Part shown: positions 21,839 to 46,436 of the stretch, in pieces
Layout of the letters: each line of letters starts with the position of its first letter
Numbering within the stretch: position 1 is the stretch's first letter
Origin: Actinomycetota bacterium
GTDB taxonomy: Bacteria > Actinomycetota > AC-67
Assembly: GCA_036398095.1 (NCBI GenBank)
Contig: DASWHR010000141.1
Location: 1,138 to 65,137, forward strand
Direction: 5' to 3'
Length of the DNA: 64,000 nt
Notes under the pieces: generated by a model
What the model was told of the DNA's origin: nothing
What the model saw: the letters and a program-made list of their open reading frames with translations, nothing else
Databases searched by the model: none
Translations under genes and position numbers: made by a program

Positions 21839-21851
21839 CCGAGCCGGACAG

Positions 21852-22220
21852 TTGCGCAACAAGTTTGTTGCGCGCTATGCTCTCCCTATGCCCGATCCCA
21901 TTCAGCGAAAGATCAAGGCCTTGGTGGATTCGCTCGGCGGTTCCGTGGTCGCAGAACTGCTCGGGGTCGATCGTTCGCAACCCTCGCGCTGGAAGAGTGG
22001 CAAGAGCCAGCCGTCGGCCCAGATGCGCGGGCGGATCCTCGACCTCGAATACGTGCTCTCTCGGCTGGAGGAGATCTTCGAACCGGCGGTCGCGGTGGAC
22101 TGGCTCTACGGGATCAACGCGTTTCTCGGGCATCAGCGACCGATTGACGTGATGCGCATCCGGGGGGTCACGGAAGTCATCGGAGCCGTCGACGCCGAAG
22201 CAGGTTTGGCGTTTGCCTGA
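21852..22220 (+). CDS. Xre-family HTH antitoxin of a RES-Xre (MbcA/ParS-like) module.
   Basis: N-terminal HTH (LVDSLGGSVVAELLGVDRSQPSRW) and a C-terminal DUF2384-like toxin-binding domain (GRILDLEYVLSRLEEIF...AVDWLY). Confidence 0.65.
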   Translation: MRNKFVARYALPMPDPIQRKIKALVDSLGGSVVAELLGVDRSQPSRWKSGKSQPSAQMRGRILDLEYVLSRLEEIFEPAVAVDWLYGINAFLGHQRPIDVMRIRGVTEVIGAVDAEAGLAFA

Positions 22221-22770
22221 TCTCTACCGCGTCTTTCCCTATGATCCGGACGCGGCCCCACACGAGCCGGGCGGGGCGCTCCATGCTCCCCGAGATCGTC
22301 AGGGCAACGGACGCGCGGACAACCCAGGCCGCTACAGCGTCGTGTACTTCGCTGCGACACCTGCCGCAGCGGCCGCAGAACGCTTTCAATCCTTTGCCGG
22401 ACGCCGCGTGACGCCTGCCCACCTGCGTGGCGGCCGATCGGGACTGCCCTTGGCACTAGCGAACGTCTCAGTTCGACGCGACGACGCTCGCAATCTGGAC
22501 GACCCGGCTGCGCTCCAAGAACACGCCTTGATTCCCTCGGACGTCGCGACGCGCGATCGCCATGTCACGCAGGCCTGGGCATTGCGCTTGTGGGAGGCGG
22601 GCTTCCCCGGTGTGCGCTACTGGTCGGCCATCGAGGCCAAGTGGCCGGTGATCGCGCGGTGGTCGCTCGATGACGTGCGCGTGGAGCAGGTCGAGCCGCT
22701 CACCGTCTTCCACGCCGCGCTGCGGGAAGCGGCGGCCCTGCTCGGCATCGAGATCGGACGCAGTCGCTAG
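22213..22770 (+). CDS. RES-domain toxin (MbcT/ParT-like NAD+-targeting toxin).
   Basis: RES-domain layout with a conserved Arg context (GRYSVVYFAATP) and later Glu/Ser residues. 8-nt overlap with the Xre gene. Confidence 0.6.
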   Translation: MPDLYRVFPYDPDAAPHEPGGALHAPRDRQGNGRADNPGRYSVVYFAATPAAAAAERFQSFAGRRVTPAHLRGGRSGLPLALANVSVRRDDARNLDDPAALQEHALIPSDVATRDRHVTQAWALRLWEAGFPGVRYWSAIEAKWPVIARWSLDDVRVEQVEPLTVFHAALREAAALLGIEIGRSR

Positions 22771-22880
22771 GAGGGTGCTGAAAAAGACCGACCCGTGCCT
22801 GGTCGGACTTCAATCAGCCCAGGTCGGAGGGTTAACGTCGGGCGGGCATGCATGCAGACACTCACTTTTTCAGCACCCTC

Positions 22881-22884
<4 letters not shown>
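22767..22884. mobile_element. 118-bp MITE-like element, copy 1, with 20-bp terminal inverted repeats (CTAGGAGGGTGCTGAAAAAG ... CTTTTTCAGCACCCTCCTAG).
   Basis: Near-identical copy at 45805..45922. The terminal CTAG supplies the TAG stop of the RES toxin (+) and of menF (-). Internal palindromes (gcatgcatgc, gttaac). Confidence 0.65.
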
Positions 22885-24091
<1,207 letters not shown>

Positions 24092-24095
<4 letters not shown>

Positions 24096-43521: not shown

Positions 43522-44457
43522 ATGATCATCGGAACAACCGTCGCCGCCGCCGTCTTCTTCGCCGGCTGCGCGCTCGCATTCGTCACGATTGAAGGAGTCG
43601 TGGTCGAACGCGCCCGCGTCAACCGAAACATGCGGCGCCTGAAGAACATCGACTTGAAAGCGACCGATCTTCGCCGCAAGGAGCTGGCCAAGCCGTTCGC
43701 CGGCCGCGTGGCCTGGCCGCTGCTGCGATTCGTCGGCCGCTTCGCGAAGAAGTTCACGCCGGCCGGCGTGGTCGAGCGCCTGGCACACGATCTCGTCTAC
43801 GCGGGCAGCCCGGTCGCGTGGGACGCCGAACGGATTCTGGCGACAAAGCTGGTCGCCGCGGCCGGCGGCTTTCTGGTGCCGTCGCTCGGCGGGCCGCTGC
43901 TCGGGATGGCGCCGGTCCGCGGCATCGTCGGCGGCGTGGTCTTCGCAATCCTCGGCTACTACGCGCCCGAGTGGGCGCTGCGGTCGCGGGCCGGCACGCG
44001 GCAGGCCGCGATTCAGCGGGCGCTGCCGGATGCGATGGATCTGCTCTCGATCACCGTCGAGGCCGGACTGGGATTCGACGCGGCCGTCAAACGCGTCGCC
44101 GGACAGGCGCGCGGACCTTTGGGCGAGGAATTGCATCGCGTGCTTCAAGAGATGCAGATCGGAAAGCCGCGCGCCCAGGCGCTGCGTTCGCTCGCCGACC
44201 GGACGTCGGTTCCCGAATTGCAATCGTTCGTGCTGGCGATGGTGCAGGCCGACTCGTTCGGCATCGCCATCGGGCAGGTGCTGCACGTGCAGGCCCGGGA
44301 GATGCGTTTGAAGCGGCGGCAGCGCGCGGAGGAACGCGCACAGAAGATTCCGGTGAAGATCCTGATGCCGCTGTTGGGGTGCGTGTTCCCGTCGCTGTTC
44401 GTGGTCATTCTGGGGCCGGCCGGCATCCAGATCTACCGGAGCATGCTGAGCAACTAG
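43522..44457 (+). CDS. tadC: TadC (T2SS-F family inner-membrane platform protein).
   Basis: T2SSF-type domain (LPDAMDLLSITVEAGLGFDAAV). Confidence 0.8.
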   Translation: MIIGTTVAAAVFFAGCALAFVTIEGVVVERARVNRNMRRLKNIDLKATDLRRKELAKPFAGRVAWPLLRFVGRFAKKFTPAGVVERLAHDLVYAGSPVAWDAERILATKLVAAAGGFLVPSLGGPLLGMAPVRGIVGGVVFAILGYYAPEWALRSRAGTRQAAIQRALPDAMDLLSITVEAGLGFDAAVKRVAGQARGPLGEELHRVLQEMQIGKPRAQALRSLADRTSVPELQSFVLAMVQADSFGIAIGQVLHVQAREMRLKRRQRAEERAQKIPVKILMPLLGCVFPSLFVVILGPAGIQIYRSMLSN

Positions 44458-44458
44458 C

Positions 44459-45808
44459 ATGAGGATCCTCGCGTTCACCACAGATGCCTCGCTCGAGGTG
44501 GCTCTTGCCTCGCTCGACGAGCGGTTCGAAATCGTCGCCGCCCGCGATCCGGAAGGGGCGCTCGCCGAGGCGTGCCGGTCGGATCTTGCGCTCGTCGCGC
44601 TGGGCACGACCGATCGCGGCCGCAGCGCGGTCGAAGCGCTGCACCGGCTGCGCGTCGGCATCCCGTGCCTGATCGTCGGCGACGTCGTTCCCGGCGACGA
44701 CGGAGCCGTCCCTGTGCTCGTGCGCCCGTTCTCGCTCGGCGACCTGACCGAGGCGATGGTGCGTGCCGTGCAGCGCCCGTCAGTCCCGGAGTCTCAGCCG
44801 GAGCCCGAGCCGGAGGCCGCCGAACCCTTCATTGACCTGCCTCCCCCGGTCGCCACAGCGGCGCAGCCGGAGCCGGAACCACAGCCGGAACCGGAGCCGG
44901 AACCGCAGCCGGACGAGGTACCGGACGAGGTACCGGCGGCGTTTCCCGATCACGAGACGGTCGAAGAATTGCTTCGGCAATTGGAGGAGGCCGCGGCCGC
45001 CGTGCCGCCCGCCGCCGCAACACCGTCCAGGGATCCGGTGTCGTGGGCGCTGGACGCGCTGCACGAGATCGGCGACGCCCCCGCGCCCGAACCGCGAGCG
45101 CGGCCGCTTCCGGCCGGCGCCGCGCCCGAGCAAGAAGCCACCGCCGCGCGCATCGTGCGTCATGCCGCCGCCGCTCCCCGCAGCGGCGACTGGCTCGCCG
45201 ACCGCGGCGGCGAACGAAGCGGGCTCCATCGCCTGCGTCGCCGCCGGCGTGCGATCCCGGTGGCCGGCTCGCCGCGCGCATCGATCATGCGCCGCGTCCG
45301 CTCGGCGCTGGAAGGCGCGCGCGAACTGGAGGCGCTGCTCGAAGAGATCCCGTCCCTGTCGGACCCGCATGCGATGGCGCGCGCGCTGGTGCGCGAAGCC
45401 GTCGAGCTGCTCGGCTCCGAGACGGCGGCGCTGTACTCCGCCGACCCCGACGGGTATCGCATCGCCGCGGCGCACGGCTTGTCCCCCGTCGAGCAGTCGA
45501 TTGTGGTTCCGCGCGAGCAGCCGTTGTTCGGCGACGTCGCCGGCCGCTTGGAAGCGGTTCTGGTCGCGCCGGTCGATCTGGTTCGGGGGCTCGTCGCAGG
45601 CATCGGCGGCACAACCACCGAGGCACTGATGCTCGCGCCGCTGGACGTGGACGGGCGATGCGCCGGCATTCTGCTCGCCGGCCGTTCGCGCTTCGGAGAC
45701 GAAGACTTGGAACGTCTGTGGCATCTCGCCGAGGAAGCAGCGCCGGGCTTCGCAGCCGCGCGACTGATCGAGCGGATCCGCCGGCGCGACCTTCCCGTCG
45801 CGCTCTAG
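44459..45808 (+). CDS. Regulatory protein made of a receiver-like N-domain, a Pro/Glu-rich (PEPEPQ) repeat linker and a C-terminal GAF domain.
   Basis: The N-terminus resembles a degenerate REC domain. Tandem PEPEPQ coding repeats at about 44790-44935. The C-terminal about 170 aa is GAF-like. Confidence 0.6.
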   Translation: MRILAFTTDASLEVALASLDERFEIVAARDPEGALAEACRSDLALVALGTTDRGRSAVEALHRLRVGIPCLIVGDVVPGDDGAVPVLVRPFSLGDLTEAMVRAVQRPSVPESQPEPEPEAAEPFIDLPPPVATAAQPEPEPQPEPEPEPQPDEVPDEVPAAFPDHETVEELLRQLEEAAAAVPPAAATPSRDPVSWALDALHEIGDAPAPEPRARPLPAGAAPEQEATAARIVRHAAAAPRSGDWLADRGGERSGLHRLRRRRRAIPVAGSPRASIMRRVRSALEGARELEALLEEIPSLSDPHAMARALVREAVELLGSETAALYSADPDGYRIAAAHGLSPVEQSIVVPREQPLFGDVAGRLEAVLVAPVDLVRGLVAGIGGTTTEALMLAPLDVDGRCAGILLAGRSRFGDEDLERLWHLAEEAAPGFAAARLIERIRRRDLPVAL

Positions 45809-45922
45809 GAGGGTGCTGAAAAAGACCGACCTGTGCTTGGTCGGACTTCAATCAGCCCATGCCGGAGAGTTAACATCGGGCGGGCTTGCATGCAGACACT
45901 CACTTTTTCAGCACCCTCCTAG
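45805..45922. mobile_element. 118-bp MITE-like element, copy 2, with the same 20-bp terminal inverted repeats as copy 1.
   Basis: About 93% identical to 22767..22884. Its left CTAG supplies the TAG stop of the REC-GAF gene. Confidence 0.65.
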
Positions 45923-45947: not shown

Positions 45948-46436
45948 ATGCGCACCCGAACGGCGGGCATGATCGCCTCGCGCGTCCTCGCGATCTATAT
46001 CGCCTTCACGTCGATCATCTTTTCCGGCGAGTTGATTCACGCGCTCATCGAAGGTCGCCCGGCCGGCGTCGTCGCCGAATCGGCCCTGCCGGCCGGCGTC
46101 GCGCTCGGACTGGCGCTGCTTCTTTGGGTCGCCGCGCCGGCCGTCGCCGATCGTCTGGCCGGCAGCGCGAGCGGCGGCGCGGGCGAAGAAGACTCGCCGG
46201 CCCGCGCCGCGGACATCGCGGCGATTGCATTCACCGTCGCCGGGCTGTTCATCGCCGCCCAGGCGTTGCCTCTGGTCGCGCACGCGCTGACGCGACTCGC
46301 GATCGGCGAAGGCACCGGGCGCGACATCGCGGCGGATCTCGCCTCGGCCATCGCTCGCACCACCATCGGAGCGGCGCTGGCCGCGACCGCCCGGTCGCTT
46401 GCCAAGCGCTTGTTTGCGCCCGAAAGCACCCGGTAG
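45948..46436 (+). CDS. Hypothetical polytopic membrane protein.
   Basis: Four or more hydrophobic helices. More plausible than the Arg-rich antisense ORF 45900..47135. Confidence 0.45.
   Translation: MRTRTAGMIASRVLAIYIAFTSIIFSGELIHALIEGRPAGVVAESALPAGVALGLALLLWVAAPAVADRLAGSASGGAGEEDSPARAADIAAIAFTVAGLFIAAQALPLVAHALTRLAIGEGTGRDIAADLASAIARTTIGAALAATARSLAKRLFAPESTR

Follow-up and report, generated by a model that had tools for sequence, protein, structure and literature searches.

We analysed a stretch of 64,000 nucleotides (hereafter the window) from an uncultured Actinomycetota bacterium (NCBI GenBank assembly GCA_036398095.1, contig DASWHR010000141.1, positions 1,138 to 65,137 of the forward strand), and found that the repeat at 45805-45922 is very probably a non-autonomous miniature inverted-repeat transposable element (MITE) with ends of the IS5 family, which sits on the CTAG of a stop codon. 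The element belongs to a repeat family, its insertion sites exist in filled and empty states, it is flanked by CTAG, and its ends match those of IS5-family elements; it represents a new family of a well-known kind of MITE. The parts of this copy, referred to below as copy 2, are the following:

45805-45808, no strand: left CTAG, read as the duplicated 4-bp target (from the sequence; the orthologous locus L057 has one CTAG at the matching stop codon)
45809-45918, plus strand: body of copy 2, 110 bp, with no credible open reading frame (ORF) (six-copy alignment; nhmmer E = 1.5e-40; the syntenic orthologous loci L057-L059 lack the element)
45809-45824, plus strand: left terminal inverted repeat (TIR), GAGGGTGCTGAAAAAG, 16 nt (end scan; the motif is also terminal in IS5-family elements)
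45816-45844, minus strand: internal GC-rich hairpin CCGACC...GGTCGG, followed directly by TCTTTTTC (consensus scan of six copies)
45903-45918, minus strand: right TIR, a perfect reverse complement of the left one
45919-45922, no strand: right CTAG, read likewise as duplicated target (from the sequence)

The layout over 45805-45922 is CTAG-GAGGGTGCTGAAAAAG...CTTTTTCAGCACCCTC-CTAG, and the ORFs which cross the body are all spurious. The inverted repeats are perfect over 16 nt (20 nt if the CTAGs are counted), both in the two copies of the window and in four further copies described below. An earlier note on this DNA, made from the letters alone, had counted the CTAGs within the 118-bp element; this extent has to be corrected, as the CTAG is best read as a duplicated target and the true repeat as the 16-nt GAGGGTGCTGAAAAAG.

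Copy 1 lies at 22767-22884 on the plus strand (CTAG, a 110-bp body at 22771-22880, CTAG) and, according to the alignment, has the same orientation as copy 2. Each copy is 118 bp long; their alignment is free of gaps and shows 7 differences, and their likeness breaks off exactly at the outer CTAGs, beyond which the flanks are unrelated. Two inverted pairs of the 17-nt end GGAGGGTGCTGAAAAAG (with up to 3 mismatches) are present in the window, which makes four occurrences where 0.03 would be expected. The proposal of a second MITE-like copy, with the length and TIRs of the first, is therefore borne out, and the similarity, which runs through the whole 118 bp, is not confined to ends that resemble TIRs by chance; the figure of about 8 substitutions given in the earlier note has to be lowered to 7. 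No third copy was detected in the window by nhmmer with a profile of the six copies.

Scanning of JGI metagenomes with the end motif revealed four more loci with the same interior (L022, identical to L047; L023; L044; L046), and copy 1 was found again (L041). All four originate from the two samples which also hold contigs of the window. Their tetranucleotide correlation with the window is 0.96-0.98, and in GC content and tetranucleotides they fit it to much the same degree as contigs of the window itself. Judged by composition, an origin of these loci and the window from one genome is compatible with the data, but not proven. The view that the copies form a dispersed repeat family is thus upheld by the insertion loci, of which the window has two and the two metagenomes another four, all six distinct. 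The six copies differ pairwise at 3-10 positions; the outer 27 and 33 nt are invariant, and all 15 variable columns are interior. CTAG is present on both sides at five of the six loci, while the right side of L023 reads CT(CT)AG, with a 2-nt CT insertion, so that the insertion sites do share the target motif whose existence (CTAG or TA) had been put forward as a check. Each of the six loci has, on at least one side, a CTAG whose TAG is the stop codon of a long ORF rich in third-position GC, and two of them have this on both sides. The orientation of the element relative to the flanking genes is mixed across the copies. The full element gave no match to plasmids (blastn), and a literature search on the end sequences returned no papers.

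Two sets of candidates for further copies were discarded. Viral contigs scanned for the 17-mer yielded seven matches, all of them single and with no second inverted end nearby, which are apparently due to chance. Single-end matches in genomes (e.g. L020, or L008, the same as L029) also had no second inverted end nearby; they look like chance matches, and some are probably coding.

The genes on which the two insertions abut are these:

44459-45808, plus strand: gene of a GAF-domain protein, 449 aa, upstream of copy 2 (Pfam GAF, GAF_2, GAF_3); it follows a tad-type ATPase gene and two T2SSF genes
45948-46436, plus strand: conserved downstream gene, 162 aa, no Pfam match; it starts 139 nt past the GAF stop, compared with 20-36 nt in relatives
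21852-22220: gene of an Xre-type antitoxin, partner of the RES toxin gene
22213-22770, plus strand: gene of a RES-domain toxin, whose TAG stop lies within the left CTAG of copy 1
22881-24095, minus strand: isochorismate synthase gene MenF, 404 aa, stop at 22881-22883 (protein P0017, 100% identity)

The TAG at 45806-45808, inside the left CTAG of copy 2, is the stop codon of the GAF gene, as had been noticed previously, and the GAF orthologues stop at the same residue (...PVAL or ...RVAL, then the stop). MenF, on the minus strand, takes its TAG stop from the right CTAG of copy 1, read in reverse complement, and copy 1 thus lies between convergent genes.

Evidence of insertion comes from relatives in which the same sites are empty. 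For copy 2, three syntenic loci have GAF orthologues 66-69% identical to that of the window and the same gene order, and the gap from GAF to the next gene is 36, 20 and 20 nt. In L057 the GAF stop contains a single CTAG (...GCGCTCTAG|CCCC; in longer context ...GTCGCGCTCTAG|CCCC..GGGTACGCT..), placed exactly at the insertion point of the window, which has 114 extra bases at this CTAG, i.e. the element plus one copy of the target. For copy 1, MenF proteins 70-77% identical are encoded in L066, L067 and L068, and in all three the gene ends at CTAG: L066 and L067 have one CTAG (...CCCGCTAGCGCG...), which makes up the overlapping stops of MenF and the convergent MenD, while in L068 the contig stops after the CTAG. 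Both copies of the window are insertions relative to their syntenic relatives. A duplication of 2 bp (TA) or of 3 bp (CTA or TAG) would add the same 114 bp; these sizes were set aside in favour of 4 bp, since autonomous relatives of the element duplicate TTAG or CTAA, and it is by homology to them that the CTAGs are taken for a duplicated 4-bp target rather than for part of the inverted repeat.

The window contains 19 copies of the tetranucleotide CTAG, about 2.3-fold fewer than the 44.2 predicted by shuffling that preserves dinucleotides. The two elements account for four of these sites through their target duplications; of the remaining 15, only about a third are stop codons according to a rough ORF check. 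CTAG holds TAG on both strands, so an insertion at a stop-codon CTAG would rebuild the stop (on the left or, for a gene of the opposite strand, on the right) and would leave the flanking ORFs intact. In a CTAG-poor, gene-dense genome of high GC content, such CTAGs would be tolerated landing places. The position of the copies at gene ends can therefore be explained by the fact that ORFs remain unchanged at stop-codon CTAGs, together with selection against insertions inside genes.

The affiliation of the element to the IS5 family is based on its ends, which match at 14-15 of 16 positions in seven IS5-family elements and one truncated IS1182-like element. Comparison of a 31-nt end query with annotated plasmids pointed to four elements. 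A Bradyrhizobium IS5-family element has TTAG|CAGGCTGCTGAAAAAG at both ends and a TTAG duplication; ISAtc5 of Acidithiobacillus caldus reads TTAG|GAGGGTGCGGAAAAAA ... CATCAGCCTC|TTAG (14/16 at the left end); a truncated IS1182-like element of Enterococcus hirae begins ATAG|GAGGCTGCTGAAAAAG (15/16); and an unannotated 165-bp element of Paracoccus reads CTAG|CAGGCTGCTGAAAAAG...CTAG. The transposases of the Bradyrhizobium element and ISAtc5 pass the NCBIfam model NF033581 (IS5 family) and carry the Pfam domains DUF772 and DDE_Tnp_1. Protein similarity alone guided the choice of five more homologues of the ISAtc5 transposase (51-58% identical); they belong to elements of Azospirillum, Sinorhizobium, Sphingomonas, Roseovarius (ISRssp10) and Azotobacter, and all five have ends of the type CAGG(C/T)(T/C)G(C/T)(T/G)GAAAAA adjoining YTAR; in the Sphingomonas element the motif is present at the intact left end only, the right end being interrupted. 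As the same ends accompany homologues picked by their transposase, the motif is a property of an IS5-family clade. Unambiguous 4-bp duplications flank three of the autonomous elements (TTAG, TTAG and, in Azotobacter, CTAA). The end of E. coli IS5 itself, GGAAGGTGCGAA(T/C)AAG, is recognisably related to that of the MITE.

Two of these plasmid matches deserve a separate comment. The Paracoccus element, of about 165 bp, is located on plasmid pBEN of Paracoccus versutus (NZ_CP038196.1; L061, 2501-2667), a record with six matches to the end query, and looks like another IS5-type MITE, in this case in a cultured organism. On the E. hirae plasmid pCQP3-9_1 (L063, 2501-3655), the truncated IS1182-like transposase gene is situated between a copy of IS1216 and erm(B); the end motif therefore also occurs in resistance plasmids of Firmicutes.

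Based on these similarities, the transposase that moved the element was probably of the IS5-family DDE type. Supplied in trans, it would bind both ends, cut a YTAR target (here CTAG) with a stagger of 4 bp and join the element to it; repair of the gaps would then copy CTAG, leaving one on each side. For IS5 the target duplication is 4 bp, C(A/T)A(G/A) (PMC11677980). Elements of the ISAtc5/ISRssp10-like clade (NF033581) share with the MITE the end motif (G/C)AGG(G/C)TGCTGAAAAAG and the YTAR target, together with a 4-bp duplication that is probable for the MITE as well, but they are 1.2-1.3 kb long and have a transposase gene (about 350 aa, DUF772 and DDE_Tnp_1), whereas the MITE has 110 bp and no gene.

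The closest described counterpart is MITEPsy1 of Pseudomonas syringae pv. phaseolicola, an element of 100 nt with ends GGAAGGTCTGAAAAAGCC, which generates a 4-nt duplication of CTAG or YTAA, has been caught transposing and probably derives from the IS5-family ISPsy2; its authors saw similar sequences in other bacteria (Bardaji et al. 2011; PMC3189936). Both elements are non-coding, about 100 bp long, use CTAG as a target and are attributed to an IS5-family parent, and their ends (GGAAGGTCTGAAAAAGCC and, here, GAGGGTGCTGAAAAAGAC) are alike but not identical, a comparison that concerns the printed 18-nt ends only. They differ in host (Gammaproteobacteria as opposed to uncultured Actinomycetota), and a candidate parent in the same genome (ISPsy2) and an observed transposition are available for MITEPsy1 only. 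The Correia elements of Neisseria and the ERIC/IRU elements of enterobacteria are also inverted-repeat elements of about 100-150 bp located next to genes, but their sequences are unrelated to that of the MITE, and Correia elements have TA as their target. Both groups are co-transcribed with genes, and their long hairpins can affect transcript processing or termination.

The size of the target duplication is the point at which a different kinship might be considered, namely with IS630/Tc1-mariner-type MITEs, in which case the element would be 112 bp long (GGAGGG...CCCTCC) and inserted in the TA of CTAG, with TA alone duplicated. The IS630 family, as well as MITEs attributed to it (such as RUP of Streptococcus pneumoniae), have a preference for CTAG/TA and comprise short intergenic inverted-repeat elements; IS630 prefers CTAG and duplicates TA alone. 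Flanks of the form C-NN-G, found also in same-end elements with other interiors (CTAG, CCAG in L015, CAAG in L016), fit 2 bp as well as 4 bp, and the base outside CCCTC is C in most same-end elements, even in those with a differing flank (L040, L043). Nevertheless, the motif is terminal in elements with NF033581 transposases, the TTAG and CTAA duplications are left unexplained by a 2-bp model, and MITEPsy1, whose ends are very similar, was shown by experiment to make 4-nt duplications. To our knowledge the ends of IS630 are unrelated to those of the MITE, which match IS5-family elements with 4-bp duplications; no IS630-type element with these ends was encountered, and no direct comparison with IS630 ends was made. 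We therefore regard an IS630-type origin as quite unlikely. We assign a similarly low likelihood to the idea that the repeat is a structured RNA or a gene-end element selected by the host (a terminator, an mRNA-stabilising hairpin or a REP/ERIC-like unit) whose spread was incidental. The whole element can indeed be folded into a hairpin with a 20-bp stem (-58 to -60 kcal/mol, z-score -6 to -7.4), a GC-rich hairpin abuts TCTTTTTC on the minus strand in six of six copies, with an invariant stem and a variable loop, and every copy lies at a gene end. The fold is, however, an automatic result of the inverted repeats; no compensatory changes are seen, the orientation relative to flanking genes is mixed, relatives have no element at the same sites, and the terminator-like hairpin is not a general feature of the other families with the same ends. 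The hairpin and T run resemble an intrinsic terminator which would act on minus-strand transcription only. In copy 1 it would face the incoming MenF transcript, and in copy 2 no gene enters from that side; any role in either place is a matter of speculation. Membership of a known Rfam RNA family was rejected, as there was no match at the gathering threshold in the whole window; locally the score was only 20 bits against a threshold of 105, for a plant miRNA precursor model, which is explained by the fact that any long hairpin would give such a match.

A more trivial origin of the repeat, by segmental duplication, gene conversion within one genome or an assembly artefact, might be suspected from the presence of just two copies in 64 kb, both in the same orientation. 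It has practically nothing to recommend it once the other data are considered: the likeness ends exactly at the CTAGs on both sides, the copies occur in six different flanking contexts, the same insertions are present in independent assemblies (ENA, JGI and an NCBI metagenome-assembled genome, MAG), and a filled site differs from an empty one by exactly the element and one target copy. The window itself matches contigs of an ENA assembly, a JGI metagenome and an NCBI MAG labelled Actinomycetota bacterium.

Several observations also weigh against the interpretation we favour, that of a non-autonomous IS5-type MITE. The empty sites are those of relatives only 66-78% identical, and not of the same population. 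By the flanks alone, duplication of CTAG (4 bp) is indistinguishable from duplication of TA (2 bp), and in the latter case the element would start with G and end with C; where the target is CNNG, the G and C at the borders are assignable to the element or to the target. The search patterns demanded an exact end, and the terminal invariance of the four additional copies is partly a detection bias. The autonomous elements with the motif are all from other phyla, and none of those examined has exactly the ends of the MITE (14-15/16) or comes from Actinomycetota. Finally, a tblastn search with five IS5/IS1182-type transposases revealed no transposase gene with these ends in the window and the fetched metagenome and MAG loci, its only matches being the source loci of the queries themselves, on their own plasmids or in E. 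coli; and no full-length element, with two ends 0.8-2 kb apart and a transposase between them, was present in any fetched genome or metagenome locus.

The surroundings of the two copies were of interest with regard to the suggestion that both lie next to modules which are probably horizontally acquired or accessory. For copy 1 this proved correct: the Xre/RES cassette, located together with the element between MenD and MenF, is absent from relatives. In comparison with these (L066, 2560-2610), in which MenD and MenF are directly convergent on one CTAG, the cassette (window 21839-22770) is itself an insertion, with the borders ...AAGTAG (the MenD stop) and ...GTCGCTAG (the RES stop); these borders may represent a TAG/TAG repeat. 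For copy 2 the suggestion did not hold: the order of the tad, GAF and downstream genes is conserved in relatives without the element, which gives no support for a recent acquisition of the tad locus. In all relatives examined (L057, L058 and L059), the two T2SSF genes are followed in the same order by a gene of an approximately 450-aa GAF protein and by three small genes whose products match no Pfam family; these four genes may form a conserved accessory part of this actinobacterial tad-like locus. The T2SSF gene at 43522-44457 also ends in CTAG (44454-44457), 1 nt before the start codon of the GAF gene. There is no element at that site, where an insertion would split two tightly packed genes.

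The same 17-nt end was found, in MAGs of several phyla, on both sides of elements that are 78-160 bp long and have unrelated interiors, distributed as follows:

Acidimicrobiia MAGs: elements with the same end in L005, L014, L015, L017 and L021
Chloroflexota MAG: one element with the same end, in L004
Gammaproteobacteria MAGs: elements with the same end in L009 and L043
Acidobacteriota MAG: one element with the same end, in L019
Verrucomicrobiota MAG: one element with the same end, in L016

Several of these other-interior elements have matching 4-nt flanks, which are CTAG, CCAG (L015) or CAAG (L016). Elements of the same size range in L024, L025, L040 and L048 also have unrelated interiors, and share an end of 16-17 nt.

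Another form of the motif was observed at the ends of contigs. In RUG050 (labelled Erysipelotrichaceae) and in FWPU01, three contigs each stop about 80-100 nt into an identical sequence, which has the exact end motif at its start (RUG050: L006, 1-99; L007, 458-554; L012, 4388-4484; FWPU01: L035, 1-83; L036, 1-82; L045, 1-85). This suggests that these assemblies contain a longer element in several copies, which may be an autonomous insertion sequence. Contig-end sequences of 88 and 99 nt from FWPU01 and RUG050 gave no match to plasmids (blastn).

A broader scheme can be drawn, in which the same-end elements of at least five phyla constitute one system, with transposases of the IS5 clade steering MITEs to TAG stops by way of CTAG, and in which the actinobacterial family has been co-opted as a one-directional terminator or 3'-end hairpin through the CCGACC/GGTCGG stem and T run. 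We consider it improbable that this scheme is correct.

The current understanding of MITEs is unchanged by these results, which are not surprising in that respect. At the level of the genome, the element accounts for two oversized intergenic gaps in the window, and it marks 110-bp units which, in these uncultured Actinomycetota, will be treated wrongly by gene callers and by assemblers sensitive to repeats. It also provides a clean case of a transposon confined to stop codons by target specificity and selection: CTAG is scarce in this DNA and in many instances consists of a TAG stop with a C before it, and a 4-bp duplication restores the stop even where two convergent genes share one CTAG. The conserved end motif can serve as a simple probe for IS5-type MITEs across phyla, and as a lead to the active transposase.

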